A stretch of DNA of 64,000 nucleotides from Candidatus Altiarchaeota archaeon (GCA_043800255.1 JAZDNF010000010.1:32001-96000); one strand, 5' to 3'. Counted from the first letter of the stretch, positions 3-64,000 are shown. A program made the numbers and translations. Notes: generated by a model from the sequence alone, not told the origin.

Positions 3-365
3 GGGTTGATAGAAGGTTCCACTTCTAACGAGTTCAGAATCAAGCCGACAACGTTGATAACAGATTTATGCTATCACCTAAAAGCTGATAAAAAAGTAAC
101 TGTGGAAGGCGATATTGGGGATGATGTGTGTTTTCAGATGGCGGCGGGGAGGGTTCACATAAAAGGCAATGCTGGGGAAAGTTTAGGTCAATGGATGAAC
201 GATGGTCACATAATAGTTGACGGCAACGCCGGCAGATACTGCGGCGTAAGCATCAAAGACGGCAAAATTGAGGTCGGCGGCGAAATCGCCGAAAAATACT
301 ACTGCTCGCGTGAAGGCGGCGAAGTCTGGGAGAAAGGCAAGAGGATATTCCCAAGAGTAAGATGA
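3..365 (+). CDS. Array paralog 1, GXGXG/FwdC-like beta-helix protein (5'-truncated by window edge)
   Basis: Frame is open to the left edge; ...GLIEGSTSNEF, 3 GD/GN coils, GGEVWEKG tail; TGA overlaps next ATG. Confidence 0.85.
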   Translation, partial: GLIEGSTSNEFRIKPTTLITDLCYHLKADKKVTVEGDIGDDVCFQMAAGRVHIKGNAGESLGQWMNDGHIIVDGNAGRYCGVSIKDGKIEVGGEIAEKYYCSREGGEVWEKGKRIFPRVR

Positions 366-1294
366 CAGGCACCAAAATCGTGAAGCTGAAGCTGGAGGGG
401 GGCGGAGCAGCTGACCGGCTGCCTCAGTTGAGAGAGCCTAGCAGGCCTGTGGAAGTCGATGAGTTGGTGAGCCTTTATGATAAGGTGATTGTGCCTGAGA
501 ATGAGACGTGGAATGTGGGAAAATACTATGAAGGTTATCTTGCTGAGACCAATGGGATGGACACAAATCCCAAGCAGCTTCAGGAGGTGCTTGACAGGCT
601 TGAGGAAAACTACGGCCAGGAGAGGGACTACTCTGAGAAGGCAGGGTCCCTGCTGACTGCGCTGATGCAGAATTCGCATCACAAGCTCTTCGAGTTGAAG
701 TCTGAGCTACCCCTGTCTCGTCTCGGTTTCAGGCTTTCTGGGAGAAAGAGCGTCAGCATATCAGGCGATGTCGGGTCTGACGTTGGCAGGGAAATGGAAA
801 ACGGTTTCATAACTGTCAATGGACACAGCGGAGACGAGCTGGGGATGGAGATGAAAGGCGGCAGGATTGTGGTCGAAAAAACCGCCAAAGACCGTGCAGG
901 ATACAAGATGGCAGGGGGCACGATTCACGTCAAAGGGGAAGTTAATGAGGAGGCCGGCAGGCTTATGACGGCAGGCACGATCGTGATCGAAAAAAATGCG
1001 GGAGTACTCACCGGCGATGGCATGGAAGGCGGCAGCATCCATGTTAAAGGGGATGCCACAGAAAAGACAGGTTTCATGATGAAAGGCGGCAGCATACTGG
1101 TGGACGGTAATGCTGGTCCAGACACAGGGTGCATGATGAAAGGCGGCTTCATACACGTCAAAGGCAACGCCTACCAGCAGACTGGGCCGCTGGCTGAGGG
1201 CGGCAAAATCATCATAGACAAGTGGGGCATGAGCGGCGGAGGCATCAAAGAAGGGTGCGAACTCTGGATAAACGGAAAAAAGGAGAACCCATGA
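362..1294 (+). CDS. Array paralog 2, GXGXG/FwdC-like beta-helix protein (310 aa)
   Basis: MTGTKIVKLKLE leader, AGSLLTALMQNS motif, 19-aa Gly coils; ATGA overlap. Confidence 0.9.
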   Translation: MTGTKIVKLKLEGGGAADRLPQLREPSRPVEVDELVSLYDKVIVPENETWNVGKYYEGYLAETNGMDTNPKQLQEVLDRLEENYGQERDYSEKAGSLLTALMQNSHHKLFELKSELPLSRLGFRLSGRKSVSISGDVGSDVGREMENGFITVNGHSGDELGMEMKGGRIVVEKTAKDRAGYKMAGGTIHVKGEVNEEAGRLMTAGTIVIEKNAGVLTGDGMEGGSIHVKGDATEKTGFMMKGGSILVDGNAGPDTGCMMKGGFIHVKGNAYQQTGPLAEGGKIIIDKWGMSGGGIKEGCELWINGKKENP

Positions 1295-2076
1295 CAGGAA
1301 CGAAGATAGTCAAGCTCAGGCTGGAAGATGGTGGTGCTGGCGACAAACTGCCGGAGTTGAGGGGCCGGGTTGACGAGTCTGTTCTAGGCAGGGCGCTTGA
1401 GATTTTCGAAACCACAGAGCATCAGGAAGACAGAGCTTATCATCAGCGTCTCGCTGGTGAGATATCGAATGCGGGTTTGGACATTGATAACATTACGCTG
1501 CAGGCGGTGGTTGATACCCTAGAGAAGAAGCATGCTGACGAGAAATACGATTCGACGGCTAATGAAATACACAAGAATATCGGATCGTATCAGAACAGGG
1601 CGGGCCTGCTGTATACTGCCTTGGTTCAGGCTTCCAGCAGGGACGAGTTCAAGATCAAAATGCGGAAGCCTGTTAATTTCTTGGGGCATGTTCTTGATGG
1701 AAAGAAGATCATAGTAGACGGTGATGTCGGCCACAAGGTCGGGTGGGAGATGAAACACGGAGAGATTATCGTTAACGGGAATGCCGGAATGTGGGCTGGC
1801 ATGAGCAAGCTGAATGGGAATATACATATCAAAAAGAATGCTGGGAAGTACGCAGGCAGTTGGGCGAGGGCTGGCGAAATAACAGTAGACGGTGACACTG
1901 ATGCAGGGACCGGACAGTTCCTATGCGGCGGAAGGGTTACCGTAATGGGAGACGCCAAGGGGAGTGAGACCGGTTCCAACTCCTCGTTCGGCACGATCGA
2001 TGTGAAAGGTGTGATAGAGAACATCAGCCCTAAAGTCGGGGCGACAATATACGAAAAAGGAATCAAGAAAAGATGA
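1291..2076 (+). CDS. Array paralog 3 (261 aa)
   Basis: Start moved from 1222 to the MTGTK ATG that overlaps the upstream TGA; close relative of paralog 58. Confidence 0.9.
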   Translation: MTGTKIVKLRLEDGGAGDKLPELRGRVDESVLGRALEIFETTEHQEDRAYHQRLAGEISNAGLDIDNITLQAVVDTLEKKHADEKYDSTANEIHKNIGSYQNRAGLLYTALVQASSRDEFKIKMRKPVNFLGHVLDGKKIIVDGDVGHKVGWEMKHGEIIVNGNAGMWAGMSKLNGNIHIKKNAGKYAGSWARAGEITVDGDTDAGTGQFLCGGRVTVMGDAKGSETGSNSSFGTIDVKGVIENISPKVGATIYEKGIKKR

Positions 2077-2750
2077 CCGGCACGAAGATTATCAAGTTGA
2101 GGTTGGATGATGGTGGTGTCGCCGACAGGCTTCCCCAGTTGAAGGATAACGCTCTGGATGAAGTCGTGGAGAAAGCTGTCGGCTTGTTCGAGAGGACTGA
2201 GATGCCCAGAGAGTGGGAGGAGGGTTTCTCGCCAGGCTGGTCTGAGGAACCGTGGAATTATAAAAAAATCATCTTGGAGGAGGGCAAGAAATTGGATGTG
2301 ACTCCCAGTCAGCTGCAGCTCATACTCACTTCCCTTGAGAGTAGGTTTCCAGACGAAGAAGGTTTCGGGGAGAGGCTGGGCATATTCCTGACCGCGTTGA
2401 TTGAAGGCTCCACTCATGAGGAGTTCACATTGCGGCCTACGACCCTGCTAAGTGATTTCGGCTACCAGCTAGAAGCGGATAAGAATATTACTGTGGAAGG
2501 CGATGTCGGGGACAATAATTTCTACAGGGTGAAGAAGGCGAAGATTCACGTGAAAGGGAACGCAGGTGATGAGATTGGCCATGACCTGGATGGCGGCCAC
2601 ATCCTAATCGACGGAGACTGCGGGGAGGGCTGCGGCCGCAGGATGAAGAAGGGCAAGATCGAGGTCGGCGGGAAGATAGAGAACACGTACGGCTGCGCTA
2701 GATACGGCGGACAAGTCTGGGAAAAAGGCAAAAAAGTGTACCCACTATGA
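2073..2750 (+). CDS. Array paralog 4 (225 aa)
   Basis: Leader, LGIFLTALIEGS, 3 coils; related to paralog 1 and to module 2 of paralog 22. Confidence 0.9.
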   Translation: MTGTKIIKLRLDDGGVADRLPQLKDNALDEVVEKAVGLFERTEMPREWEEGFSPGWSEEPWNYKKIILEEGKKLDVTPSQLQLILTSLESRFPDEEGFGERLGIFLTALIEGSTHEEFTLRPTTLLSDFGYQLEADKNITVEGDVGDNNFYRVKKAKIHVKGNAGDEIGHDLDGGHILIDGDCGEGCGRRMKKGKIEVGGKIENTYGCARYGGQVWEKGKKVYPL

Positions 2751-3382
2751 CAGGAACCAAGGTTGTTAAACTGAAGCTTGATGGGGAGGGGCATGAGAAA
2801 CTTCCCAAGCTGATGGATGACAAGGTCGTAGTGGAGGCGGCTTTGGGAATCTACGGGGGGACGAAGTACCAGGGAGAATGGGGTGAGATTCCCAAGTACC
2901 ATCAGGAGGTGATGCGAAAGGCTGGGGAGTTGAACGTTAACACAATACAATTGCAGAAGATTATTGATATCCTATACGGAGAATTTGGCGGCGGGAAGGA
3001 GCTTGATAAAAAATTGGGGCTTTTCACGACGGCGCTGATACAGGCCTCATCGCACGACAAGTTCAGCATCAAACCTCCCCTGCCCATGTCCTGGCTCGGA
3101 TTTCAGCTCAAAGGCAACAAGAATATTACCGTAGAAGGGGACGCGTGGAATTGGGTCGGATTTGAGATGGAAGGCGGAACGCTGAGGATAGGCGGGAACG
3201 TGGGCGACGATCTTGGTTGGGGTATGAAGGGCGGCAGGATTGAGGTTGGGAAGGAGGCAGGGCACAATGCTGGCAACCAGATGGAAGGCGGGACGATAGA
3301 CGTGAAAGAGAAAATTCGAAGTGTGAGCTCGCTGGTTAAAGGCGGCGAGATAATCATAGCGGGTGTGAAGGTCAGGCCATGA
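2747..3382 (+). CDS. Array paralog 5 (211 aa)
   Basis: Leader, LGLFTTALIQAS, Gly coils; ATGA overlap. Confidence 0.9.
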   Translation: MTGTKVVKLKLDGEGHEKLPKLMDDKVVVEAALGIYGGTKYQGEWGEIPKYHQEVMRKAGELNVNTIQLQKIIDILYGEFGGGKELDKKLGLFTTALIQASSHDKFSIKPPLPMSWLGFQLKGNKNITVEGDAWNWVGFEMEGGTLRIGGNVGDDLGWGMKGGRIEVGKEAGHNAGNQMEGGTIDVKEKIRSVSSLVKGGEIIIAGVKVRP

Positions 3383-4239
3383 CAGGGACCAAGATAGTTA
3401 AGCTGAGGTTGGAGGATGGGCAGGCGGGGAAACTTCCAAACCTGAAGGATTCTGCTGTGGATCAGGCCCTGAAATTGTATAAGGAGATGCCGTGGGTCGT
3501 CCAGACTCAATACTATAATGATACTCTCGAGCATTCGAGAAGGCTTAACCTGAACCAGAACCAGGTTCAGGCTCTGGTTAATGCCATGGAGGAGGGGCCC
3601 CCCAAGGATTCGAACTATGCCGGCTCGGCAGGCCTCTTCCTGTCAGCCATGGTGCAGGGCTCAACCAATAAATGTTTTGAGCTGGCGACGAAGGTGCCAC
3701 TGTCCTATCTCGGCTACCGCCTGGAGGGTGACAAGACCCTCATAGTTGAAGGCGATGTCGAGGACAGGCTCGGCTATGGGATGAAAAGCGGCAGAATCAT
3801 CGTGAAAGGTAGCGCCCGGGACTGGGTGGGCGGCATGATGACTGGCGGAGACATACTAATAGAAAAGGATGCTAGGGATTTCGTCGGAGGGACTATGGAA
3901 GGGGGCAACATACTCGTGAAAGGAGACTCGCGCCAGGCTCCTGGATTCAACATGGCCGACGGTAAAATCATAATAGACGGTTCATGCGCCGAATTGGCAG
4001 GCCGAGGGATGAGGAACGGGTTCCTGCATGTGAAAGGGAATGCTGGCATATGGGCTGCTAAGTGGCTGATTGGCGGGAAGGTGAGAATAGATGGGAATGT
4101 TGGGGCTGAAGCCGCGTTGAAGATGTCAGGCGGAGTCTTGGAAATAGGGGGCAGTATGGAAGGCCTGTCGCCGGAGAAAACAGGGGGGACAGTATTCTAC
4201 AAGGGCAGGCAAATCTGGCCTGTGGAAACCACAAGATGA
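3379..4239 (+). CDS. Array paralog 6 (286 aa)
   Basis: Leader, AGLFLSAMVQGS, Gly coils; ATGA overlap. Confidence 0.9.
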   Translation: MTGTKIVKLRLEDGQAGKLPNLKDSAVDQALKLYKEMPWVVQTQYYNDTLEHSRRLNLNQNQVQALVNAMEEGPPKDSNYAGSAGLFLSAMVQGSTNKCFELATKVPLSYLGYRLEGDKTLIVEGDVEDRLGYGMKSGRIIVKGSARDWVGGMMTGGDILIEKDARDFVGGTMEGGNILVKGDSRQAPGFNMADGKIIIDGSCAELAGRGMRNGFLHVKGNAGIWAAKWLIGGKVRIDGNVGAEAALKMSGGVLEIGGSMEGLSPEKTGGTVFYKGRQIWPVETTR

Positions 4240-5108
4240 CCGGTACAAAGATCATTAAGTTGAAGCTAGAGGAGGGCGGAACGGCTGATAAGCTGCCTAG
4301 TTTGAAGGTTGACGTCGTTGATAAGGGCATGGTGGATAAGGCTTTGGGCGTTTATAGGGAGACGATGCATATGGGCAATTTCACGGCCCATCCTGAGGAG
4401 AAGCATGATGAGTATCATCAGAGTGTTCTGGAGGCGACTAAGGATTGTAATGTCAACTCCGCCACTCTCGGCATGGTAGCTGATATTCTGCAGTCGAAGG
4501 ATTATGTCGAGGAGATGGAGAGGGCTAAGGGTGCCCAATTTAGGTCAGTCGTTTCCGACAAGATGGGGTTCTTTCTGACTGCGCTGATCCAGAACTCAGA
4601 GCACAGTATGTTCAGAATCAAGGCTACGAAAACTATGGACTATATAGGGTACCAGCTCAAGGGGGACAAGACCATTATAGTGGACGGGAATGTTGGGGTT
4701 GCCACTGGTAGCCAGATGGAAGGCGGGACTATCATAGTGGACGGTTCGGAGCAGTCCCATCTCGGTTCTAACATGAGAGGCGGTTTCATACATCTCAAAG
4801 GAAACGCGAGAGACTATGTCGGCACCAGAATGAGCGGCGGGGAGATAATAATCGACGGAAATGTGGGGACTGTTGTTGGGAGGGAAATGACGGATGGCAA
4901 GATAACAATTGGAGGGAATGTCGAGAGCAACGTTGGCATTGAGATGTCTGGCGGCGAAATCCACATCAAGGGCGACGTAGAACGTGACTGGGTTGGCAGT
5001 GAAATGCGCGGCGGCATCATCAGAGTAGATGGAGAATCCAAGGGCGTAAGTCGTTGGTATAAAAGAGGCGAGATCTGGCACAAAGGAAAGAAGGTGCGGC
5101 CGGAATGA
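4236..5108 (+). CDS. Array paralog 7 (290 aa)
   Basis: Leader, MGFFLTALIQNS, Gly coils; close relative of paralog 70. Confidence 0.9.
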   Translation: MTGTKIIKLKLEEGGTADKLPSLKVDVVDKGMVDKALGVYRETMHMGNFTAHPEEKHDEYHQSVLEATKDCNVNSATLGMVADILQSKDYVEEMERAKGAQFRSVVSDKMGFFLTALIQNSEHSMFRIKATKTMDYIGYQLKGDKTIIVDGNVGVATGSQMEGGTIIVDGSEQSHLGSNMRGGFIHLKGNARDYVGTRMSGGEIIIDGNVGTVVGREMTDGKITIGGNVESNVGIEMSGGEIHIKGDVERDWVGSEMRGGIIRVDGESKGVSRWYKRGEIWHKGKKVRPE

Positions 5109-5899
5109 CAAACACGAAAATAGTCAAACTGAAGCTGGATGAGGAGGGCGGCGAGAAGCTGCCGGCATTGAAGGACCCGACAGTCAGAGAGGTTCTGGGC
5201 GTGTACGACGGTATTCAGAGCTCTCGTGAATCAAAATCTGCCAGATATGACCATATGCTGGGCGCAGTCAAAGGTTTTGATGTGACCGAAACTCAGCTGC
5301 ATGATATTGTCAATGCCCTGGACGGAAGACAAAGGACTTTTGACGATAAGGTCAAGGGCGGGTTGTTCCTGACAGCGTTGGCGCAGAATTCATCAACTAA
5401 TGAGTTCAAGATCAAGGTGGGGACACCCTATGTTGCAGTAGGCTGCAAGCTGGGCATAGGGAAGAAGATAACCGTTGTCGGGGATTTGGGAGAGCAGACA
5501 GGGCGTGAGATGGACGGGGGTACAGTGCATGTGATGGGCAATGCTGGGCAGAAGACCGGAAATCGGATGCGTAGGGGAATGATTATCGTCGAAAAAGACG
5601 CTGACACGCATTTGGGTTACAAGATGTCAGGCGGCAAAATCCATGTTAAAGGAAACGCTTCCGTGTTTGCCGGATGTGAGATGAATGGGGGGGAAATCGA
5701 AATAGACGGGGACTCTGCTGGCGACACGGGCTTCTGCATGCAATCCGGCAGGCTCATCGTTCACAAGAATGTTGGATTGCAGACCGGCGGATGGACGTCC
5801 GGCGGGACGATAGTAGTCGATGGCGAGATTGGAAGCGTACACGAGTACCACAATAAGGGTGAGATAATCCACAAGGGAGTGAGGATTCCGCCAAAATGA
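5105..5899 (+). CDS. Array paralog 8 (264 aa)
   Basis: MTNTKIVKLKL leader, GGLFLTALAQNS, Gly coils. Confidence 0.9.
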   Translation: MTNTKIVKLKLDEEGGEKLPALKDPTVREVLGVYDGIQSSRESKSARYDHMLGAVKGFDVTETQLHDIVNALDGRQRTFDDKVKGGLFLTALAQNSSTNEFKIKVGTPYVAVGCKLGIGKKITVVGDLGEQTGREMDGGTVHVMGNAGQKTGNRMRRGMIIVEKDADTHLGYKMSGGKIHVKGNASVFAGCEMNGGEIEIDGDSAGDTGFCMQSGRLIVHKNVGLQTGGWTSGGTIVVDGEIGSVHEYHNKGEIIHKGVRIPPK

Positions 5900-6753
5900 C
5901 CGGCACAAAGATTGTAAAATTGAGACTGGACGAGGGGGCTGGCGAGAGGCTTCCCTCATTGAAGAGGCATGCTGTCGCCGCAGCGCTTGGCTTGTGGGAG
6001 ACTACAGAGTACAAAGGTTGGGATGATTCTAAAGGATTCTATGAGAAGCTCATGTGGGAGGCGAAAGAGTATCGTGCGACGGCAAAGGACGTCCAGGCGA
6101 TAGCAGACCAGCTGGAGGAGCGTCACTCCAGCGAAGACTGGTACCCGCAGAAGGCGGGCATACTGCTGACTGTGATGATGCAGAATTCCTCCGAGAGCGA
6201 GTTCACTCTCAAGACTGAGACGCATCTGGCCTATGTGGGCTATCGGCTGTTTGGGGGGAAGAAGATAACTGTGGAAGGCGATGTCGCATCCAACGTCGGC
6301 AGGCACATGACCGAAGGGCACATCCACGTGAAAGGGGAGGCCGGTTCAAACGCAGGACATCATATGATGAACAGCACCCTCCGCATTGAAAAGGACGCTG
6401 AAGGCTGGCTAGGCGAGAGCATGGGCGAGAACAGCAGCATCTACGTCGGCGGGAAGGCAGGAGGCAGTGTCGGAGAGGGCATGTGGGGTGGCAAGATAGA
6501 AGTCGTCGGCGACGTGGGCGACAACGCCGGGAAGAGAATGCAGAAGGGAGAACTCATCATAGGAGGGAACGCTGGAAACAATCTCGGGGAGAACATGAGC
6601 GGCGGCCACATCCATGTCAAAGGAAACTGCGGGTGGGGCACTGCCGACTGCATCGGCAGGGGCAGGATAGACATAGACGGGAACGTGAAAAACTTCGGCT
6701 ACATCGGCATAAACAAAGAAGTCTACCACAAAGGCAAGAGGACAAAAGGATGA
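5896..6753 (+). CDS. Array paralog 9 (285 aa)
   Basis: Leader, AGILLTVMMQNS, Gly coils; close relative of paralog 17. Confidence 0.9.
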   Translation: MTGTKIVKLRLDEGAGERLPSLKRHAVAAALGLWETTEYKGWDDSKGFYEKLMWEAKEYRATAKDVQAIADQLEERHSSEDWYPQKAGILLTVMMQNSSESEFTLKTETHLAYVGYRLFGGKKITVEGDVASNVGRHMTEGHIHVKGEAGSNAGHHMMNSTLRIEKDAEGWLGESMGENSSIYVGGKAGGSVGEGMWGGKIEVVGDVGDNAGKRMQKGELIIGGNAGNNLGENMSGGHIHVKGNCGWGTADCIGRGRIDIDGNVKNFGYIGINKEVYHKGKRTKG

Positions 6754-7721
6754 CAGGCACGAAAGTTGTTAAACTAAAATTGGAGGATGGCGGCGCTGAC
6801 CGGCTTCCAAGGTTGAAGTCTGTAGTCGGAGAAGCGGTTAACCTGTTCAGCATGATAGAGTATCCCGTGCCTGGGGGTGGCGAGGAGCATGCGTTTTATG
6901 AAAAAGTAATGAAATCAAGCAGAGGATGGAATTTCACATCAGACCAGCTGCAGCAGGTATATGACGGCCTTGAGGGAACCTACTCTCGTGACGACTTCTC
7001 ATACAAGTCGGGCGTCTTTCTCACGGCGTTGATGCAAAACTCGAGCAGCAGTGACTTCACGCTTAAAGTAAGGAGCAGACTGTATTTTCTGGGAATCAAT
7101 CTCACAGAAGGTAAGAGCCTCACTGTCGAAGGCGATGTCGGAGGATTCACAGGAGATAGTATGTCAGGTGGCATAATCCGCGTAAAAGGAGACGTTGAAC
7201 ACTCAACAGGGAATGGCATGACCGGTGGCAGATTAGAAGTTGAAGGCAAAGCCAGAACGTTTGTGGGCTCTTGGATGCGAGGAGGGAGCATACACGTGAA
7301 CTCTGATGCGCAAGATGGGGTAGGCGTGCATATGGAAGAAGGCGAAATAACGATAAATAGAAGCGCTGGAAAAAACGTCGGATCCAATATGAAAGGGGGA
7401 AAAATAACAATCGGCGAGGATGTTGGAGAATCTGCCGGCTGGAATATGCAAGCCGGCAGTATACTAGTGAAGAGAGATGCCGATGATAGTGCTGGAGACA
7501 GCATGCGCGGCGGACACCTTGAGATAGGGCGCAACGCAGGTAACTCGACAGGACATGAGTTAAGAGGCGGCACAGTACACGTCAAAGGAAATGCTGGAAA
7601 CTGGACAGGCGAAAAAATGGAAGCAGGCATCCTAAAAATCGAAGGAAATATACGGGGGATGTCTAAAGACATCAGAGGCGGCGAAATCTGGGAAGGCGAT
7701 AGGCGGGTGTGGCCGAAATGA
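6750..7721 (+). CDS. Array paralog 10 (323 aa)
   Basis: Start moved from 6483 to MTGTK ATG at 6750 (ATGA overlap); SGVFLTALMQNS; long coil run. Confidence 0.9.
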   Translation: MTGTKVVKLKLEDGGADRLPRLKSVVGEAVNLFSMIEYPVPGGGEEHAFYEKVMKSSRGWNFTSDQLQQVYDGLEGTYSRDDFSYKSGVFLTALMQNSSSSDFTLKVRSRLYFLGINLTEGKSLTVEGDVGGFTGDSMSGGIIRVKGDVEHSTGNGMTGGRLEVEGKARTFVGSWMRGGSIHVNSDAQDGVGVHMEEGEITINRSAGKNVGSNMKGGKITIGEDVGESAGWNMQAGSILVKRDADDSAGDSMRGGHLEIGRNAGNSTGHELRGGTVHVKGNAGNWTGEKMEAGILKIEGNIRGMSKDIRGGEIWEGDRRVWPK

Positions 7722-8473
7722 CCGGGACGAAGATAGTGAAATTGAGGCTGGATGGTGGGGGGCAGGCTGAGAGGCTGCCGGTGTTGAAGAACAATCTTAT
7801 CACAACGGAGGAAGCGCTCAGACTCTACAAGGATGTGAGATTCCAGCATGAATTCGCAGATGACCGGACAAAATACTATGAGAGGATAATGGAAGAGCTC
7901 AAGGGGACTGATGTGATGCCAGAGCAGCTTCAGGAGATATACGATGCGATGAGCGGGGATTTCCGCAGCGACACGCGGAACATACCCAAAACAGGCCTCA
8001 TGGTGTCCGCGTTAGTGCAGAATTCCAGTCGAAATGATTTCAGCCTGAAAATCGGAGACTTCATACCCTTCCTCGGTTTCAAGCTTGGGAAAGGCAAAAA
8101 ACTTACGGTGGACGGCGACGTTGGAGACTTCACCGGCGAGCTCATGGACGGCGGAACGGTCCACGTCCTCGGGGAGGCGGGATGGCGTACCGGCGCCTGG
8201 ATGAAAGACGGAAAAATAATAGTCGGCTTGTCCACCAACTCCTATACCGGCTGGAAGATGGAGGGTGGAGAAATCATAGTGGAAGATGATGTTACAAGCT
8301 ACCTTGGAAGCGAGATGAAAGCCGGGAGGGTCCATGTGAAAGGCTCTGCCGGCTCAGAAGTTGGTGACAAGATGGAGGGCGGAACCGTCGAAGTTGACGG
8401 AGGGGCGCAGAATGTGAGCGCAAACTACAAGAGTGGGACCATCATACTACAAGGACTGCAGGTGAAACCATGA
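7718..8473 (+). CDS. Array paralog 11 (251 aa)
   Basis: MTGTK ATG at 7718 (ATGA overlap); TGLMVSALVQNS; Gly coils. Confidence 0.9.
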   Translation: MTGTKIVKLRLDGGGQAERLPVLKNNLITTEEALRLYKDVRFQHEFADDRTKYYERIMEELKGTDVMPEQLQEIYDAMSGDFRSDTRNIPKTGLMVSALVQNSSRNDFSLKIGDFIPFLGFKLGKGKKLTVDGDVGDFTGELMDGGTVHVLGEAGWRTGAWMKDGKIIVGLSTNSYTGWKMEGGEIIVEDDVTSYLGSEMKAGRVHVKGSAGSEVGDKMEGGTVEVDGGAQNVSANYKSGTIILQGLQVKP

Positions 8474-8931
8474 CTGGGACGAAGGTTGTTAAGCTGAAAT
8501 TGGAGGCTGATGGTGTGCCCGACAAGCTGCCGACTTTGAGGCCGGATATGAGAGAGTCTTCTAAGGTTGATGCTATTACCGAGCTGTTTGATGGTATGAG
8601 GTTTGAGAGTTATAAGGGCAACCTGCAAAGGAGGTCTGAGGACTACTATCAGGGATGCTGGCACAGACTCGGGGACGCGGGTTTTAATACAGGAGTCAGC
8701 AATCAGGAATTTGGGGAAATACTGCGTGTGCTGGAATCTGACTACTCAAAGCGAAAAGATTTCAGAACCGAAGCCAGCTTGTTCCTATCCGCTCTTCTCC
8801 AGAGGTCAGCCTTCAAAGACTCGGAAATCGGGCAGAAGAGACTGGGTGACATAATCGACACTGTCATAGACTCACCTGAGCGTATGCCTCTGCAGGAGAT
8901 TCTGAATAAAACGTGGGCTGGTATCCAATAA
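8470..8931 (+). CDS. Array paralog 12, short form lacking the beta-helix (153 aa); possibly degenerate
   Basis: Leader and ASLFLSALLQRS motif present, followed by an unrelated tail with no Gly coils. Confidence 0.7.
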   Translation: MTGTKVVKLKLEADGVPDKLPTLRPDMRESSKVDAITELFDGMRFESYKGNLQRRSEDYYQGCWHRLGDAGFNTGVSNQEFGEILRVLESDYSKRKDFRTEASLFLSALLQRSAFKDSEIGQKRLGDIIDTVIDSPERMPLQEILNKTWAGIQ

Positions 8932-8962
8932 CCGGTTTAGACCCTCCGGTTCGCACATTTTT
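8930..8962 (+). terminator. Possible terminator (short hairpin + T tract)
   Basis: AACCGG-N10-CCGGTT inverted repeat at the stop of paralog 12, then TTTTT; stem is only 6 bp. Confidence 0.3.
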
Positions 8963-8994
8963 CTGTCTGTACTGTTCTTTATATAATCAAGAAA
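8956..8994 (+). promoter_or_regulatory. Repeated intergenic promoter-like element, copy A
   Basis: CATTTTTCTGTCTG-N10-TATATA-N9-ATG; aligns without gaps to copies B and C. Confidence 0.6.
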
Positions 8995-9672
8995 ATGACC
9001 GGTACTAGAGTCGTCAAACTCAGGCTGGATGATGGGGGGACAGCGGAGAAGCTTCCGAAACTGAAGGAGGATCCTGTTGAGACTGCGTTGGGATTGTATG
9101 AGATGTTGCGGGATAAGCCTGTGCCTGAGGGCTGTTTTCAGGAGGCTATGGCGTTGACCAAGCATCTGAATGTCAGCTCCGACGAGCTTCAGAGCATCTA
9201 CGACAGGATTGAGGGAAACTATCTTGAAGACAAATCCAGCATCGACGAGGCTGGCGTGTTCCTCTCCGCGTTAATCAACAATTCAGGACATCACACGTTT
9301 GTGCTGAAGCCTAAAGTGCTGCTGCACTACTTCTGCTATAAAATCCAGAAGGGTAAGGATATCACCGTTCTTGGGAATGTTGGTTTGGGCGTCGGCTGGG
9401 AGATGGATGGCGGGAAAATCAAGGTTGAAGGCAACGCAGGAGGCGATGCAGGATATACCATGTATGCCGGAGACCTGCACATCACAGGAGACGTTGAATC
9501 GAGCTGCGGAGCCCATATGAAAGACGGTAACATCTACGTCGGCGGAAATGCGAGAAACAATGCCGGCCATTTCATGGAAGGCGGCAGAATCCACATCCAC
9601 GGCGATTCCGGACCTGAGACAGGCTTCGCCAAGAAAGGCGGCGAACTGATAGTAGACGGCAGAAGAGGATAA
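8995..9672 (+). CDS. Array paralog 13 (225 aa)
   Basis: MTGTRVVKLRL leader, AGVFLSALINNS, Gly coils; follows element A. Confidence 0.9.
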   Translation: MTGTRVVKLRLDDGGTAEKLPKLKEDPVETALGLYEMLRDKPVPEGCFQEAMALTKHLNVSSDELQSIYDRIEGNYLEDKSSIDEAGVFLSALINNSGHHTFVLKPKVLLHYFCYKIQKGKDITVLGNVGLGVGWEMDGGKIKVEGNAGGDAGYTMYAGDLHITGDVESSCGAHMKDGNIYVGGNARNNAGHFMEGGRIHIHGDSGPETGFAKKGGELIVDGRRG

Positions 9673-9677
9673 AAAAG

Positions 9678-10583
9678 ATGACAGGCACAAAAGTCGTTAA
9701 GATTAACCTTGAGGGCACTGGAGTTCCCGGCAGTCTGCCTGATCTGAGGTTGAGCGGGCCGTCTGCTGAGGAGGTTATCAACGCCTGCGGTGGGATGGAG
9801 GAAATACATACTGCAAAGTATGACAGTATGTTGGAGAAGACTGCGGGATTTGATGTTAATTCACACCAGCTTCAGAGGATAGTGGATGTTGCGTGCGGCA
9901 TGTGCGAGGATGATGACGCCATGAACCGCGTTGGCCTTCTTCTGACGGCGTTGGTGCAGAATTCAAAATCCAACGAGTTCACGATCACGCCTCCGAAACT
10001 GTTGGATCACATAGGGTCCAGGTTGGACGGCGGGAAAAAGATTGTCATAAACGGTGATGCAGGCCATTTTGCAGGAGATGAGATGATTGAGGGGATAGTG
10101 CACATAAAAGGCAATACGTTGAATATGGCAGGTCAAGGTATGGAAGGCGGCAGACTGATTGTGGACGGCAGCACAGGAGACGAATTAGGCGAGTATATGC
10201 TGGGCGGCGAGATACACGTTAAGGGAAATGCTGGGAAGAATACGTGCGAAAAGATGTCCGGCGGTATTATAACCATAGACAGAAATGTAGGAGCCAATGC
10301 CGGCTGGCTGATGAAGGGAGGCAGCATACACGTTAAAGGCGATGCAATAGAGGGTGTTGGCGCGTGCATGGAAGGAGGCTCTATAAAGGTGGGCGGAAAC
10401 ACAGGCGATAATGCCGGCTGGGAAATGGAAGGTGGCACCCTGCACATAAAAGGAAACGCGGGGGATAACGTAGGCCTTAGAATGACTGGCGGTAAAATAA
10501 GAGTCAACGGTAGAATCCGGAGCATAAGCGAGAACTATGCAGGCGGCGAAATCTGGGAGGGCAGAACACAGGTCAAACCATGA
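9678..10583 (+). CDS. Array paralog 14 (301 aa)
   Basis: Leader, VGLLLTALVQNS, Gly coils; 5-nt gap upstream. Confidence 0.9.
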   Translation: MTGTKVVKINLEGTGVPGSLPDLRLSGPSAEEVINACGGMEEIHTAKYDSMLEKTAGFDVNSHQLQRIVDVACGMCEDDDAMNRVGLLLTALVQNSKSNEFTITPPKLLDHIGSRLDGGKKIVINGDAGHFAGDEMIEGIVHIKGNTLNMAGQGMEGGRLIVDGSTGDELGEYMLGGEIHVKGNAGKNTCEKMSGGIITIDRNVGANAGWLMKGGSIHVKGDAIEGVGACMEGGSIKVGGNTGDNAGWEMEGGTLHIKGNAGDNVGLRMTGGKIRVNGRIRSISENYAGGEIWEGRTQVKP

Positions 10584-11257
10584 CAGGCACGAAGATTATC
10601 AAGTTGAGGCTGGATGAGGAGGGTGTTGGGCAGAAGCTTCCGAAACTGAAGGAGGGCACTCTGGAAACCTGCCGGAGAGTGTTCAAGGCGCATGACCCCC
10701 GAATGGGACATCTTGGTTATGATGATATGATAGAGGCGACAAAGGATTTGGACGTCGATTCAGAGCAGCTTGAGAATATCCTCCGGGACTTGCATGTCAA
10801 TCATTCTCAAGACAGAAAATTTGGGGAAATAGCCGGCCTATTGCTGTCTGCGTTGGTTCACAATTCCCGGCAAGATGAGTTCGAAATCGAGACTCCAGTC
10901 CCACTGGATTATGTCGGTCACAGGCTAAGCAAAGGGAAGACTCTCACGATAAAGGGGGATGTGGGAGACAATGCAGGAGATGGGATGGACGGCGGGGTCA
11001 TGAACATAAACGGAAACGCAGGCAGCGCTGTTGGAAACAGCATGTGCGATGGCACAATCAATGTGAGCGGATACTCTGGGAACTACACTGGAAGCAACAT
11101 GCACTCTGGCAGAATAAACGTGAAGAAAGAAACCGGCGGAATGACGGGAGCGTACATGGGCGGAGGAATAATAGCCTGCAAAGGCAAGGTATTAGACTTA
11201 GCCCACACCATCTACGGTGGCGCAATATACAGCAGAGGAAAACAGATATGGCCCTAA
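10580..11257 (+). CDS. Array paralog 15 (225 aa)
   Basis: Leader, AGLLLSALVHNS; sister of adjacent paralog 16. Confidence 0.9.
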   Translation: MTGTKIIKLRLDEEGVGQKLPKLKEGTLETCRRVFKAHDPRMGHLGYDDMIEATKDLDVDSEQLENILRDLHVNHSQDRKFGEIAGLLLSALVHNSRQDEFEIETPVPLDYVGHRLSKGKTLTIKGDVGDNAGDGMDGGVMNINGNAGSAVGNSMCDGTINVSGYSGNYTGSNMHSGRINVKKETGGMTGAYMGGGIIACKGKVLDLAHTIYGGAIYSRGKQIWP

Positions 11258-11937
11258 CGAGGAGGACAAAAGTCGTTAAGCTGAAGCTGGAGGGCGGCGG
11301 AGAGGCTGAGCGTCTGCCGAAGCTCATGGAAGGCGATATGAAAACCTGCCGGAAGGTTTTCGAAGCCTATGACCCACACATGGGGGAAGGAGATTACGGT
11401 GACATGCTGAAGGCTACTAAGGGTTTGAATGTCGACTCAAAGCAACTGGAGAACATCCTCCGCGACTTGCACGCCAATTACTCACAGGACAGGAACTTCG
11501 CTGATGGTGCTGGCCTCCTACTTTCTGCGCTGGTGAACAACTCAGAGCATGATGAGTTCGAAATCGAGACTCCAGTTCCATTGAATTATGTCGGTACAGG
11601 TCTGATTGAGGGTAAGACCCTCAGGATAAAAGGCAACGTTGGGGATCATGCAGGCGACAGTATGCAAGGCGGCACCCTGAACATCAAAGGCAACGCCGGT
11701 CACAGCACAGGCGACGGCATGCACGGTGGGGAAATCAATGTGACAGGGTTTACGAGAACATTTACTGGGAGCAACATGAATCATGGCAGTATAAACATCG
11801 GAGAAAGTGCCGGAGCAATGACCGGAGCGTACATGGGTGGGGGGGTAATAGTCTGCAAAGGCAGTGTGTTCGGATTGGCTCACACAATCTACGGCGGCAG
11901 AATATACGGTCAAGGAAAGCAGGTGTGGCCAGAATGA
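11248..11937 (+). CDS. Array paralog 16 (~229 aa, start uncertain)
   Basis: Usual ATGA junction reads CTAA; nearest in-frame ATG is 11248 (MALTRRTKVVKLKL). Confidence 0.8.
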   Translation: MALTRRTKVVKLKLEGGGEAERLPKLMEGDMKTCRKVFEAYDPHMGEGDYGDMLKATKGLNVDSKQLENILRDLHANYSQDRNFADGAGLLLSALVNNSEHDEFEIETPVPLNYVGTGLIEGKTLRIKGNVGDHAGDSMQGGTLNIKGNAGHSTGDGMHGGEINVTGFTRTFTGSNMNHGSINIGESAGAMTGAYMGGGVIVCKGSVFGLAHTIYGGRIYGQGKQVWPE

Positions 11938-12803
11938 CTGGGACCAAGATTGTTAAGCTTAAGCTGGAAGATGGAGGAGCAGCTGACAGGCTTCCGAAGC
12001 TGAGAACGCATACTGTCGATGCAGCACTTAGTTTGTGGGATAGTATTGAATACAGGTCAACAGATTATTCCAGAGACGTCTATGAGAAGCTGTTAGAGGA
12101 GACCAGAGACTTCAACGTGACAAATGAGGATATTCAGGCTATAGCAGACAGGTTGGAGAAGAATTTCTCAAAAAAAGATGATATCTACTCCCCTCATAAG
12201 GCTGGCATACTGCTGACTGTGATAATGCAGAATTCATCAGAGAATGCGTTCAGGCTTAAGACCAAGACTCCGCTTTCCTATCTCGGCTACAGGCTGTTCG
12301 GCGGCAAGAAGATAACAATTGAAGGCAATGTTGATGAGAATGTTGGGCGTCATATGAGGGACGGCCATATTCATGTGAAAGGAAGTACTGGAATGAATGC
12401 TGGGCATGGGATGAGAAACAGCACAATCAGAATCGATAAATATGGGGGTTACTGGCTTGGGAGGGAGATGGGAGAAGGCGGTGAAATCTACGTCGGCGGC
12501 GATGCATCTCAAAACATTGGTCAAGAGATGACAGGCGGAAAAATCGAAGTAACCGGTAATGTGGACAACTATGCTGGGACTCGCATGGAAGCCGGGCAGA
12601 TTATTATCCACGGGAACGCTCGCCATCATCTGGGAGAGGAAATGCGCGGCGGCAGTATCAATGTCGCAGGAAATACTGGCAAGTATACTGCGGATCGTAT
12701 CACCGGGGGCAGAATCGACATAGGCGGAAAGGTTGAAAGCTTCGGCGACATCTCGGACAGTCGCGGTGAAGTCTACCCCAAAGGCAAAAGGGTGAGACGG
12801 TGA
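11934..12803 (+). CDS. Array paralog 17 (289 aa)
   Basis: MTGTK ATG at 11934; AGILLTVIMQNS; relative of paralog 9. Confidence 0.9.
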   Translation: MTGTKIVKLKLEDGGAADRLPKLRTHTVDAALSLWDSIEYRSTDYSRDVYEKLLEETRDFNVTNEDIQAIADRLEKNFSKKDDIYSPHKAGILLTVIMQNSSENAFRLKTKTPLSYLGYRLFGGKKITIEGNVDENVGRHMRDGHIHVKGSTGMNAGHGMRNSTIRIDKYGGYWLGREMGEGGEIYVGGDASQNIGQEMTGGKIEVTGNVDNYAGTRMEAGQIIIHGNARHHLGEEMRGGSINVAGNTGKYTADRITGGRIDIGGKVESFGDISDSRGEVYPKGKRVRR

Positions 12804-13420
12804 CAGGCACGAAAGTCATAAAGCTGAACCTTGAGGGCCAGGATGGGATTGGCAGGCTGCCTGGCCTGAGGGACAGTGTCGTCCCAGAGGCCATACGATT
12901 GTTCGCCGAGAATTTCAACTTGACGAGCGATACCAGCAGATACTACGGGTGGGCGTTGGAGAACACCAAAAAACTTGATGTGAGCTCGTCGGAGGTTCAG
13001 TCCATACTAGACAGTCTGGAAAAGACATTCGGCGACGACCATACATACAGTTGGTTCATGGGATTGTATATGACGGCGCTGATGAGGAACTCCTCCCGCA
13101 AAAAATTCAGGCTGGCGGCGAAGGTGCCGCTGCACTTTCTGGGTTATCACATGGAGGAGGACAAGGATGTGACGGTGGACGGCGATGTCGGAGACTGGGT
13201 CGGAAGCAACATGGCTGCCGGCAGGATAACCGTGAACGGCCGCGCCGGCGATAGTCTGGGAGCGCTCATGGAAGGCGGCAGCATACACGTCAGAGGAGAC
13301 GCTGGAATGGATGTGGGCCGCGGCGCGAGGTCGGGGACGATAGACGTTGACGGAGTCATTGGGGGAGTCGCCCACGATGTCAGGGGCGCGAAGGTCAGGC
13401 AGAAAGGGAGGAGAGTGTAA
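12800..13420 (+). CDS. Array paralog 18 (206 aa, GTG start)
   Basis: GTGA overlap; leader, MGLYMTALMRNS, Gly coils. Confidence 0.9.
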   Translation: MTGTKVIKLNLEGQDGIGRLPGLRDSVVPEAIRLFAENFNLTSDTSRYYGWALENTKKLDVSSSEVQSILDSLEKTFGDDHTYSWFMGLYMTALMRNSSRKKFRLAAKVPLHFLGYHMEEDKDVTVDGDVGDWVGSNMAAGRITVNGRAGDSLGALMEGGSIHVRGDAGMDVGRGARSGTIDVDGVIGGVAHDVRGAKVRQKGRRV

Positions 13421-13422
13421 CA

Positions 13423-14001
13423 ATGGAGCCGACCAAAGTAGTAAAGCTGAAGTTGGACGGCGGTGGCACGCCAGAGAAGCTCCCAAAGCTGATGGAGCCA
13501 GGCGAGAAGGAGCCGCTTGAGCTCTACAGGATGACAAGATACTCTGGCAAGGACGTTGAAGCTGCGGGCGAATTCTATGACCTCATATGGGCGAAGACCG
13601 AAGGGTGGGAGCTATCCAACGAGAAAATCCAGAAAACCCTGACGCGGCTGGAGAAGGGATGCGGTCATGAGCCTGACTTCAGGCAGAAGGCTGGAGTCTT
13701 CATCTCAGCATTGCTGAACAGGGCGGAAAACAACGACCTCAGATTGGAGTCGAAGATTCCCCTGGACTTCTTGGGATTCAGGTTCGGGAAGACTGTGCTG
13801 GTAGTCTACGGGGACACGGGAGAATACACCGCAGCCCAGGTGGAGCATGCGACCATACAGGTGAACGGCAACGTTGGGAAATATGCGGGCGACGGCATGC
13901 AAAACGGGATGCTGGACGTGAAAGGAAAGTTCGAGGAGCCATGGGGCGGAATATCTGTGGGAGTTACTGTAAAAGAGGGCGGAAGATACTTGAACCCGTG
14001 A
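13423..14001 (+). CDS. Array paralog 19 (192 aa)
   Basis: MEPTKVVKLKL leader, AGVFISALLN, few coils; last gene before the vWA gene. Confidence 0.88.
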   Translation: MEPTKVVKLKLDGGGTPEKLPKLMEPGEKEPLELYRMTRYSGKDVEAAGEFYDLIWAKTEGWELSNEKIQKTLTRLEKGCGHEPDFRQKAGVFISALLNRAENNDLRLESKIPLDFLGFRFGKTVLVVYGDTGEYTAAQVEHATIQVNGNVGKYAGDGMQNGMLDVKGKFEEPWGGISVGVTVKEGGRYLNP

Positions 14002-21888: not shown

Positions 21889-21920
21889 CGGCGGAATCAC
21901 TGATTAGGCTCCTATTTCAG

Positions 21921-51556: not shown

Positions 51557-51603
51557 GATGGCGGACGAAATCATAGACTCGGAAGACGAGAGGCTTAGCC
51601 GAA

Positions 51604-52290: not shown

Positions 52291-52293
52291 GCC

Positions 52294-52330
52294 CTATTTC
52301 TGTCTGAAATCCCGGATATATACTCGAGAA
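52294..52330 (+). promoter_or_regulatory. Repeated intergenic promoter-like element, copy D
   Basis: CTATTTCTGTCTG-N10-TATATA-N8-ATG; same TGTCTG-to-TATATA spacing as copy A. Confidence 0.5.
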
Positions 52331-53874: not shown

Positions 53875-53878
53875 CGGC

Positions 53879-53936
53879 GGAAATAGGCTGATTTCCCGCG
53901 TTTTTCTCTTTCAACGTCGCGGTATATAACCGGGAA
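53879..53936 (+). promoter_or_regulatory. Short hairpin/T tract plus degenerate promoter-like element, copy E
   Basis: GGAAAT-N6-ATTTCC, then TTTTTCTC ... TATATA-N8-ATG; lacks the GTCTG core. Confidence 0.4.
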
Positions 53937-62849: not shown

Positions 62850-63532
62850 ATACTAACGTAGTCAAACTGAAGCTGGAAGGCGGGTCTGAGGGCAGGCTGC
62901 CCAAGCTTATGGACGATACGGTTGAGAGGGCGGTTGAGCTATTCGACGAGGGCAGGCATGATGGTTATCCTCCGAAAAGTTTTGAGACTTATCTGCGTCA
63001 GACTAGCGACATAAGCGTGTCAGAGCGGCAATTGCAGGACATCGTTGACAGAATATGGGAGAAACACGGTGATGCGGAGAATACCGATGACCATCTGGGA
63101 TTGTATGTGTCCGCTCTTGTCAGCAGTTCAAAACACAGCAAATTCAGGATTGAGACTCCCAAGCCGCTGAATAATCTCGGTTACAGGCTGCCGAAAGGCA
63201 AGACTCTCATAATCGGTGGCGATGCAGGAAGGCATTTGGGCTCCCTAAATGCCGGGCAGATAATCGTGAAAGGCGACGCCGGGGATTACATCGGCTGGGA
63301 GATGAAAGAGGGCCAGATACTCGTCGAAGGCAACGCCGGCATGTATGTTGGATGTTATATGCGCAGCGGAGAGATTCAAGTTAGAGGGCAGGCCGATCCG
63401 ATGGTCGGCATAAACATGACCGGCGGATTCATACGAGTCGGAAAGCTGTCAGAGGGTGAGGGCATCAGCGCAGCATATCAAGGAGGCGAAATCTGGGAAG
63501 GAAACAAAAAAGTCAGACCAAAAGAAACATGA
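62843..63532 (+). CDS. Array paralog 75 (229 aa)
   Basis: MVNTNVVKLKL variant leader, 7-nt overlap (ATGGTAA); LGLYVSALVSSS. Confidence 0.88.
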   Translation: MVNTNVVKLKLEGGSEGRLPKLMDDTVERAVELFDEGRHDGYPPKSFETYLRQTSDISVSERQLQDIVDRIWEKHGDAENTDDHLGLYVSALVSSSKHSKFRIETPKPLNNLGYRLPKGKTLIIGGDAGRHLGSLNAGQIIVKGDAGDYIGWEMKEGQILVEGNAGMYVGCYMRSGEIQVRGQADPMVGINMTGGFIRVGKLSEGEGISAAYQGGEIWEGNKKVRPKET

Positions 63533-64000
63533 CTGGGACTAAAATTGTCAAACTAAGATTGGAGGATGGTAGGAAAGAGAACCTCCCCGGCCTCAGGGAT
63601 GTGCTATCTGAACCGCAGGCTGAGGAGCTGGTCAGAATATGCGGCCGGATAAACTATGATGATGCCGGCAAATACTATAAGTTAGCGTTGGCTGCGACAA
63701 AAAAATACAATCTAACCTCGTTGGAGCTGCAGACGGTGGTCGAAGGTTTAGAGAAAAGCTCTTCTGCTGGTTATGAATCCCTCAACAGGAGCGGCATCTT
63801 CTTAACGGCATTAATCCAGAATTCAAAGCAACGGGAGTTCACGATAAAGACAAACAAACCCCTAAACTGCTTCGGATGCTCATTAAGCGGCCACAAGAGC
63901 ATAACAGTCAACGGGGACCTCGGCCACAACGCTGGCTTGGACATGATAAACGGGACAATCCACGTATATGGCAAGACGGGAAACTCGACAGGAAACTCGA
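63529..64000 (+). CDS. Array paralog 76 (3'-truncated by window edge; not in the ORF track)
   Basis: ATGA overlap; translated by hand as MTGTKIVKLRLEDGRKENLPGLR...SGIFLTALIQNS...GDLGHNAG, open to the edge. Confidence 0.85.
   Translation, partial: MTGTKIVKLRLEDGRKENLPGLRDVLSEPQAEELVRICGRINYDDAGKYYKLALAATKKYNLTSLELQTVVEGLEKSSSAGYESLNRSGIFLTALIQNSKQREFTIKTNKPLNCFGCSLSGHKSITVNGDLGHNAGLDMINGTIHVYGKTGNSTGNS

Follow-up and report, generated by a model that had tools for sequence, protein, structure and literature searches.

The draft genome GCA_043800255.1 (Candidatus Altiarchaeota archaeon, here G000) comprises 1.75 Mb in 17 contigs and is 93% complete and 1.3% contaminated. We analyzed a stretch of 64,000 nucleotides of its contig C15 (JAZDNF010000010.1), G000:C15:32001-96000, referred to below as the window; positions without a contig prefix are window coordinates. 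The window holds a tandem array of paralogous genes for beta-helical proteins homologous to subunit C of formylmethanofuran dehydrogenase (FwdC), each headed by a conserved N-terminal leader, and the array is interrupted at one point by a pair of genes for a vWA protein and an AAA+ ATPase.

A tandem array of 97 paralogous genes

Open reading frame (ORF) listing and leader-anchored calling identified 74 complete and 2 edge-cut paralogs in the window, all on the + strand. A preliminary description, made from the sequence of the window alone, had reported 76 co-oriented paralogs running off both edges, 19 to the left and 57 to the right of the vWA/AAA+ pair, and our gene calling returned identical counts.

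3-14001, + strand: left block of the array, 1 cut and 18 complete paralogs (gene calling, alignment A1, GXGXG/FwdC hidden Markov model matches)
18837-63999, + strand: right block of the array, 56 complete paralogs and 1 cut paralog (gene calling, alignment A1)
3-365 and 63529-63999, + strand: the two edge-cut paralogs

When the contig was followed outward, as the same description had advised, the array was found to continue to 97 genes (C15:26884-107661), with both borders outside the window. It spans 80.8 kb, including an interruption of 4.8 kb, or about 4.6% of the genome, and two further leader-bearing genes on contig C10 bring the number of copies in the genome to 99. The 97 array proteins measure 153-447 amino acids (aa), with a median of 256. 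Their genes start with ATG (90) or GTG (7) and stop with TGA (81), TAA (12) or TAG (4), and all 97 frames are open. At 75 of the 96 successive junctions, the genes overlap by four bases (ATGA). Gaps of at least 20 bases number nine, one of which houses the vWA/AAA+ pair, and they divide the array into blocks of 1, 17 and 7 genes before the pair and 3, 15, 23, 1, 2, 23 and 5 genes after it. Shine-Dalgarno-like pentamers, from a lenient list, precede 53 of the 97 starts. Judged from the tiling, long runs of genes are probably transcribed together and translated by coupling.

One scaffold with a conserved leader and a variable surface

All proteins share one order of parts, namely a leader of 25 residues, a 4-helix domain, an FwdC-like beta-helix and a C-terminal hairpin. 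The leader, with the consensus MTGTK[IV]VKLKLE..G...LPxLK, was defined from an alignment of 73 window paralogs (A1) and an alignment of 68 leaders (A3). Among the 73 aligned paralogs, its residues M1, K8, L11 and P21 are invariant, and T4, K5, L9, L20 and L23 are at least 90% conserved. In A1, the leader is followed by a variable stretch that ends in a conserved helix, AGxFLTALxQNS, and the G-rich coils are followed by a conserved C-terminal motif, GGEIW..G.KVWP. The coil unit consists of 19 residues, GxxMxGGxIxVxGNAGxxT, whose G, M, I and V positions are nearly fixed among 358 coils, while the x positions of the same coils reach entropies of 3.2-4.1 bits, that is, near-maximal variability. 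By motif count, each protein has 0-8 coils. The constant leader and scaffold and the variable remainder that the preliminary description had pointed out are thus plainly visible in the alignments.

An AlphaFold2 model of one paralog, built on the alignment of the 73 paralogs, reached a mean pLDDT of 89 and a pTM of 0.85, and its parts were assigned as follows.

362-1294, + strand: example paralog, 310 aa (AlphaFold2 model)
362-439, + strand: leader, aa 1-26 (AlphaFold2 model and alignment)
455-673, + strand: 4-helix domain, aa 32-104 (AlphaFold2 model)
686-1159, + strand: beta-helix, aa 109-266 (AlphaFold2 model)
aa 274-293 of the same protein, + strand: low-confidence loop (AlphaFold2 model)
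1256-1285, + strand: C-terminal hairpin, aa 299-308 (AlphaFold2 model)

The beta-helix is predicted to be capped at both ends, by the helical domain on one side and by the C-terminal hairpin on the other. A second model, of the leader and helical domain modelled separately, has a pLDDT of 83. In both models the leader (aa 1-30) lacks regular structure (pLDDT about 50-70). The 4-helix domain has no significant match in the PDB, the best E values being 1.9 in the fold comparison and 0.042 in the profile search, and the leader and helical domain are not covered by Pfam. The leader is hydrophilic, and no signal peptide or convincing hydrophobic segment was found in the 99 leader-bearing proteins by Kyte-Doolittle analysis (19-residue mean); the highest mean, 1.64 in one protein, compares with a mark of 1.6. 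With its conserved caps, variable coil count and variable free positions, the predicted anatomy is consistent with a repertoire of variable surfaces built on one constant scaffold.

Homology to FwdC outside the metabolic context

The beta-helix of the array is homologous to FwdC, which confirms the assignment of the preliminary description. Pfam PF01493 (GXGXG) matches 7 of the 8 paralogs tested at E ≤ 0.01, three of the eight passing its cut-off of 32.5 bits, and NCBIfam TIGR03122 matches all four paralogs examined (E 1e-11 to 1e-37), none of which reaches its cut-off (best 129.4 against 130.65). By these scores, the paralogs share the domain but are probably not FwdC equivalogs. Against the PDB, the family profile matches the FwdC chain 5t5i_C with E 1.4e-33. 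The six best folds for the AlphaFold2 model are FwdC/FhcC chains (TM by target 0.45-0.51), with the best matches, 5t61_C and 5t5i_C, at E 1.5e-6 and 30-35% identity over about 160 columns. FwdC and its counterpart FmdC have the homologous beta-helix with an identical type of 19-residue G-rich coil, whereas FwdC lacks the leader, the 4-helix N-terminal domain and the C-terminal hairpin motif of the array proteins. It is normally present in single copy, in contrast to the 99 copies in G000, and the array has no adjacent fwdA, fwdB or fwdD. The C-terminal beta-helix of GltB and the GXGXG subunit of archaeal split glutamate synthase (GltS) share the Pfam family and the fold class; the array's match to glutamate synthase is much weaker than that to FwdC (E 3.7e-8 against 1.4e-33). 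The part consulted of a paper on glutamate synthase (PMC2614490) has no bearing on the array family.

As had also been noticed at the outset, there is no Fwd or GltS catalytic subunit in the 64-kb window, and no fwdA, fwdB or fwdD lies in the C15 flanks. The catalytic subunits are encoded on other contigs, C8 and C9. At C8:71163-74756, fwdA and fwdB both score over their cut-offs and flank a weak GXGXG match. Contig C9 encodes a split glutamate synthase, including a GXGXG subunit (124 bits), next to rnf genes. The array genes are neither fused to nor beside GATase or Glu_synthase domains, whose sole locus in the genome is the one on C9. The metabolic roles of Fwd and GltS are already served by genes elsewhere in the genome. 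The C9 locus (G000:C9:17001-37000, positions 5837-14047) encodes in addition to the GXGXG subunit a GATase, an Fer4 and Glu_synthase protein, a ferredoxin and a pyridine-nucleotide oxidoreductase; it directly precedes ApbE and RnfC- and RnfD-like genes, and just upstream of it lies a gene for a 332-aa protein with an FapA-like beta-solenoid match.

Age, selection and reality of the array

Pairwise protein identity among the paralogs has a median of 34.5% and a maximum of 81.8%, and for 79 of the 97 genes the nearest paralog is 30-50% identical. Copies this diverged are not an assembler artefact, because an assembler could have neither created nor collapsed them. In the nine closest pairs, several of which are saturated (synonymous substitution rate, dS, above 1), the gene-wide ratio of nonsynonymous to synonymous rates (dN/dS) is 0.13-0.31, and the beta-helix part gives similar values. 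The leader region shows proportions of nonsynonymous differences (pN) of 0.04-0.28 against proportions of synonymous differences (pS) of 0.45-0.83; this low pN at high pS indicates that the leader is held by selection at the protein level, and not by gene conversion or as a DNA element. To judge by these sequence comparisons, the paralogs are old and under purifying selection.

No 16S gene was found in the 17-contig draft genome. Its EF-2 is 79-85% identical to the nearest matches, several of them named Candidatus Altiarchaeales or Altiarchaeota. Contig C15 fits the Altiarchaeales lineage, since the gene ApgM in its flank has orthologues at 47-61% identity in genomes of the same family and the same order.

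A wider family in two archaeal phyla

We searched for relatives of the array at several depths. In 40 genomes of the same family or order, the family profile has 0-4 matches per genome, the best being true FwdC beside FwdB or the split GltS subunit, and among the 61 genomes of the phylum that were searched none but G000 exceeds five matches. The leader profile finds 99 places in G000 (97 on C15 and 2 on C10) and none in the 60 other genomes of the phylum. Four relatives (G003, G006, G012 and G013) encode a few longer proteins of 359-770 aa, with helical domain and beta-helix and with other N-termini. In G006 (contig C88, locus L029, 4121-7279), two such proteins of 589 and 427 aa are adjacent, and their long N-terminal extensions resemble each other. 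This pair may preserve an ancestral, low-copy condition of the family in the phylum.

Against 1.84 billion representative proteins, the family profile gave 7002 matches at E ≤ 0.001 and 995 at E ≤ 1e-30. Of the matches fetched, 79 were G000's own, and 164 others lack the leader, bar one chance match of the regular expression in a Methanosarcina FwdC. Many of these others share the helical domain (YSAxDVExFS...KAGxFLSALINNG), the coils and a C-terminal GGEIH...GKIYHKGKLI, and have a different conserved N-terminus, the leader RFGxYxPExExxVR (alignment A2). The alignments A1 and A2 were matched by hhalign with a probability of 100% (E 4e-57, 291 aligned columns), the alignment starting within the leaders, at column 9 of A1 and column 25 of A2. 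The G000 proteins have the AGxFL[ST]AL helix, the beta-helix and the G(E)I[WHY]..G..[VI] hairpin of this wider family. They lack the RFGxYxPExExxVR leader, and their own MTGTK[IV]VKLKLE..LPxLK aligns at the equivalent position with a different sequence. Members are named in databases as hypothetical protein or as 'formylmethanofuran dehydrogenase subunit C'.

A scan for the A2 motif in one genome per species yielded 45 loci, distributed over metagenome-assembled genomes (MAGs) titled Micrarchaeota (37), 'Candidatus ainarchaeum' (5), Anstonellaceae (2) and Hydrothermarchaeota (1), with several MAGs contributing 5-15 A2 loci each; we refer to them as the Micrarchaeota array loci. Their arrays are co-oriented and tandem, with up to 12 genes (L040), 9 (L038) and 7 (L056), and the 4-base overlap occurs at 40 of 79 same-strand junctions. 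The two groups therefore share domain order, C-terminal hairpin, tandem 4-base-overlap arrays and, as described below, a leader on a second domain family, and they differ in the sequence of the leader and in scale, arrays of 1-12 genes over many contigs contrasting with one array of 97 genes.

In a FastTree phylogeny of 137 sequences and 124 columns (two gappy rows dropped), 95 of the 98 G000 sequences group together, apart from a separate 34-member Micrarchaeota clade (support 0.94). The 219-aa copy on C10 is placed, together with one array member, among the single-copy forms found in Altiarchaeales relatives. These groupings indicate that the family is old in both phyla and that the array radiated in situ. 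Together, the results show that the array is genuine and ancient and arose in place, by tandem radiation within an undescribed family of archaeal proteins.

Searches of viral and metagenome collections, which may leave out records of G000 or near genomes, confirmed no further relative: pattern matches in viral contigs (58 with A2 and 56 with A1) and in metagenome contigs (28 for the pattern MTGTKVVK, alignment A6) all failed confirmation, and a degenerate DNA pattern for the leader found at least 119 stretches in metagenome contigs, none of the 80 listed encoding a member by the A1 hidden Markov model. None of ten proteins (two paralogs, six proteins from the C10 locus and both members of the vWA/AAA+ pair) matched a PADLOC-DB defence model, and the paralogs had no match among the PHROGs viral families. 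Literature searches, not extending to supplementary gene-family tables, found no publication on the family.

As side observations, GXGXG-type coils occur in a giant frame of 5538 aa in G024 (G024:C21:25001-45000, from 4861 to beyond 20000), and G007, G010 and G045 have frames of about 1500-2450 aa that contain coils of this type.

The leader as a portable module

The leader is found on more than one kind of protein. On C10 (G000:C10:12001-32000, positions 9051-10957, minus strand), two leader-bearing genes overlap. The first encodes a short beta-helix member of 219 aa that retains AGMFLSALINN. The second encodes a protein of 416 aa that matches the family profile at positions 3-58 only, while its remainder is helical and unrelated and has no beta-helix.

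The same is seen in Micrarchaeota, where the most recurrent neighbour cluster consists of 15 ORFs in 9 of the 45 loci. In 13 of the 15, the Micrarchaeota leader (xFGRYxPExxxEVR) heads a non-beta-helix body of the form …REMLRSM…EFHxxLNFFQALALAKxEGKLIVPN…; the proteins have about 260-340 aa, and their genes lie inside or beside arrays. The other two are a contig-end fragment and an apparently unrelated ORF of 422 aa. This second leader-bearing family has no Pfam match. Examples from the Micrarchaeota MAG loci (L033-L077) are as follows.

L048, 1655-2533: second-family member
L039, 1679-2533: second-family member
L060, 8253-9170: second-family member

A flexible, conserved and lineage-specific leader on unrelated domains is as expected of a recognition or address tag, and we infer that the leader may act as one.

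Genes neighbouring the C10 pair encode HEAT-like proteins of 252 and 583 aa, an FapA-like beta-solenoid protein of 193 aa and a protein of 771 aa that matches sigma-70 region 4.

The vWA/AAA+ pair inside the array

The interruption of the array holds two divergent genes, and the AAA+/vWA pair recognized in the preliminary description is real: an ATPase that appears to be of the AAA_5 (MoxR/CbbQ) class is encoded beside a vWA protein with an intact DxSGS motif.

14002-16218, - strand: vWA protein, 738 aa (Pfam VWA PF00092, 31.3 bits against a cut-off of 23.8)
16219-16271, between the two genes: divergent intergenic region, 53 bp, with A/T-rich TATA-like words near both ends, presumably with promoter function
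16272-18824, + strand: AAA_5-class ATPase, 850 aa (P-loop, borderline AAA_5 match and Rhodanese match)
18480-18824, + strand: C-terminal rhodanese domain of the ATPase, aa 743-838 (Pfam Rhodanese, 49.8 bits)

The vWA protein has an N-terminal HEAGH at aa 101 and, at aa 300-360, a low-complexity linker rich in K, E and G that includes consecutive GKGKP repeats; its vWA domain is C-terminal and contains DGSGS at aa 535. In the Atlas, the clusters closest to this protein are VWA/CobT_C proteins from bacteria and phages. The DxSGS motif (DGSGS, DLSGS or DTSGS) and HEAGH are kept in three orthologues, from G000 and from two other genomes, G004 and G018. Since HEAGH is conserved in both other orthologues, the vWA protein may be a zinc peptidase. 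A search for a metallopeptidase family with the first 250-298 residues of all three orthologues gave no Pfam match even at E ≤ 10.

The ATPase carries a P-loop, GEPGTGKT, near aa 350 and has a borderline match to AAA_5 (PF07728) at aa 350-396 only, with 21.8 bits against a cut-off of 22; every Atlas cluster listed as nearest to it is AAA_5, of the CbbQ/NorQ kind (score 0.94). Its PDB matches cover the rhodanese part only. The rhodanese fusion is confined to G000, the orthologues in G004 and G018 lacking this domain. The cysteine loop of the rhodanese domain, CDSDGDS, looks unusually acidic for a sulfurtransferase, and a separate rhodanese gene, 38% identical, lies at G000:C7:316116-316427.

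The pair resembles those formed by MoxR, CbbQ, NorQ or CobS AAA_5 ATPases with vWA proteins such as CbbO, NorD and CobT in its AAA_5 likeness and in the adjacent vWA protein with DxSGS, and differs from them in the C-terminal rhodanese domain of the G000 ATPase and the N-terminal HEAGH of the vWA protein. In G004 and G018, the orthologous pair (37-41% and 32-34% identity) is adjacent and co-oriented, whereas that of G000 is divergent, and it stands among unrelated genes; each of these genomes has one beta-helix match, on a contig other than that of the pair. No homologue of either protein was found by phmmer in the 45 Micrarchaeota array loci with flanks of up to 10 kb. Because the pairs of G004 and G018 lack arrays and the 45 Micrarchaeota loci lack the pair, it is not a conserved companion of the family. 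No conserved association of a MoxR-class pair with the beta-helix family was found, and the AAA_5/HExxH-vWA genes were probably inserted here without relation to the family, or at most in an accessory role, rather than as its conserved partner. By eye, the N-termini of the G004 and G018 AAA+ orthologues looked similar to the leader; they score about 0 bits with the leader hidden Markov model, and the likeness was rejected.

An intergenic element in the short gaps

Most of the short gaps in the array contain a similar element, which was recognized by reading the gap sequences.

8932-8994, + strand: intergenic gap with the element TTTTTCTGTCTGTACTGTTCTTTATATAATC just before ATG
21889-21959, 33778-33821, 52291-52330 and 53875-53936, + strand: similar copies of the element
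C15:27817-27865 and upstream of C15:26884: copies outside the window

The element has about 35 bases, ends about 9 bases before the ATG and is present, by our reading, in 7 of the 8 short gaps on the contig. Two gaps, 51557-51603 and C15:103693-103714 (outside the window), are without it. Its TATA-like word is located at -17 to -10 from the ATG, against a genome-wide peak of such words at -32 to -29. It may be a promoter internal to the array, or a regulatory site, with an unusual geometry.

A possible repertoire of solenoid binders and its alternatives

We tentatively propose that the array encodes a leader-addressed, co-expressed repertoire of variable-surface solenoid binders, a reading that we favor while holding it to be possible rather than probable. 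Under this proposal, long gene runs would be co-transcribed and translationally coupled, many members being made together, and the array would amount to a co-expressed panel of about 100 capped solenoids with one scaffold, one address tag and about 100 surfaces. The leader would most likely hand every member to one shared putative partner, which could be a sorting, assembly or docking machine, and the variable helical domain and coil faces would most likely bind a different target in each member. Leucine-rich repeat (LRR) proteins, ankyrins and variable lymphocyte receptors are repeat-protein binder expansions, and they offer an analogy: a constant capped solenoid, a variable number of repeats and variable non-structural positions are alike. 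The analogy has limits, in that the fold is unrelated and the array has no somatic assembly, its copies apparently being co-expressed from operon-like blocks; it also shows no gene-wide diversifying selection.

Several observations weigh against the proposal of a binder repertoire. In the nine closest pairs, selection is purifying gene-wide and nothing points to an arms race, although site-wise tests are precluded by the divergence. The transcription units are uncertain, because the intergenic element sits off the genome's usual TATA-like position. The leader-bearing subfamily was found in one genome only. A local functional link of the AAA+ gene to the array in G000 is also possible, since the ATPase gene ends only 12 bases before the next paralog and is co-oriented with it. 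The preliminary description had seen in the array a metabolic solenoid co-opted as a variable repertoire for putative roles in host interaction, defence or target recognition; of this, the diversified FwdC-like expansion and the division into scaffold and variable parts hold. The gene-wide dN/dS, well below 1, indicates purifying rather than diversifying selection.

Extended to both phyla, the proposal would describe an address-tagged system of Altiarchaeota and the DPANN lineage Micrarchaeota, in which a short, lineage-specific leader, read by a putative sorting, delivery or assembly machine, is placed on various cargo. The chief cargo would be a germline library of variable-surface beta-helix proteins, an innate recognition or effector repertoire derived from a recruited metabolic solenoid and enlarged in G000 to about 100 co-expressed members. 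We regard this broader picture as speculative and rather doubtful.

Among the alternatives, the one that survives best, although we think it unlikely, is that the proteins are exported or delivered cargo. The leader would then be a trafficking or packaging signal for export, a vesicle or a cell-to-cell route, and the proteins polymorphic effectors or displayed binders directed against hosts (in Micrarchaeota) or against neighbours, symbionts or viruses (in Altiarchaeales). Polymorphic effector systems place N-terminal trafficking domains on varied C-terminal domains, and one leader heading unrelated C-terminal domains within arrays, in two phyla, is what this explanation would expect. It would also suit the concentration of the family in Micrarchaeota-titled MAGs and the surface- or secreted-type genes that flank the array (M6 peptidase, S8 subtilase, NHL, FG-GAP/CUB). 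On the other hand, the leader is hydrophilic, with no signal peptide or membrane anchor, neither the array nor the Micrarchaeota flanks showed secretion-system genes or immunity-like partner genes, and the searches returned neither defence-model nor viral-family matches nor relatives on viral contigs.

A structural role is less likely still. In a hetero-assembly, about 100 near-equimolar subunits would stack or dock through leader and hairpin into a fibre, lattice or cytoskeletal scaffold, and the variability of their surfaces would be largely neutral. Bactofilins and like beta-helical proteins do polymerise, the 4-base-overlap tiling would suit stoichiometric production, conserved termini flank the variable body, and relatives carry GXGXG coils in giant ORFs, such as the 5538-aa frame in G024. 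Yet the beta-helix is capped at both ends in the model, and caps normally block end-to-end stacking; a homopolymer needs one gene, whereas each paralog is under purifying selection; and a coil number of about 0-8 is awkward for a regular lattice.

The preliminary description had further taken the AAA+/vWA pair to be a dedicated loader or remodeller of the array proteins, to which the HExxH motif would add the option of a leader-processing enzyme. Its position inside the array, its AAA+ gene immediately upstream of a co-oriented paralog, the intact DxSGS and conserved HEAGH of its vWA protein and an ATPase bearing rhodanese only in G000 invite such a role. We nevertheless judge it improbable, given the G004 and G018 orthologous pairs, which stand without an array, 58 of the 60 other genomes of the phylum that show neither feature together (family-profile search), the 45 Micrarchaeota array loci that lack a homologue of either protein, the opposite strand of the vWA gene and a leader without measurable likeness to ATPase N-termini. 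Homologous arrays with no link to the pair are among the outcomes that the preliminary description had itself named as refuting its idea. That nothing functional lies here at all, the array being either an artefact of assembly or binning or an amplification, neutral or selfish, heading to decay, is highly improbable: a 17-contig draft with no 16S gene found and a leader subfamily in a single genome would accord with it, but a maximum identity of 81.8%, with most nearest paralogs at 30-50%, is beyond assembler effects, and 97 open, tiled frames with dN/dS well below 1, same-contig flank genes with orthologues in same-family and same-order relatives, and like arrays in independent MAGs of another phylum all speak against it.

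What was previously known of this system is the fold of one domain, the beta-helix. In the sources searched, we found no description of its architecture, its leader and the portability of that leader, its arrays in two archaeal phyla or its 97-gene expansion, and the function proposed here is putative. Nearly 5% of a small archaeal genome is devoted to one uncharacterized gene family, and the label 'formylmethanofuran dehydrogenase subunit C' would mislead the metabolic reconstruction of these uncultivated archaea. Should the leader prove to be an address tag, it would point to a new archaeal sorting or delivery route, and the leader peptide would be a handle with which to find it. If the beta-helices bind, they would constitute an independent archaeal invention of a solenoid-based recognition repertoire, and their small, capped, cysteine-poor scaffold could be of interest for protein engineering.

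Genes flanking the array on contig C15

The array is preceded directly by a gene for an M6 peptidase (1158 aa) and followed directly by genes for an S8 subtilase (814 aa) and an FG-GAP/CUB protein (1195 aa). The flanks (L007-L010) contain further ORFs of 2485, 1109 and 1781 aa, and many of the proteins encoded there are very large, with hydrophobic or signal-peptide-like N-termini, of surface or secreted type. Further out, the flanks encode an NHL-repeat protein of 1417 aa and Ig-like/CarboxypepD_reg proteins of 696 and 677 aa.

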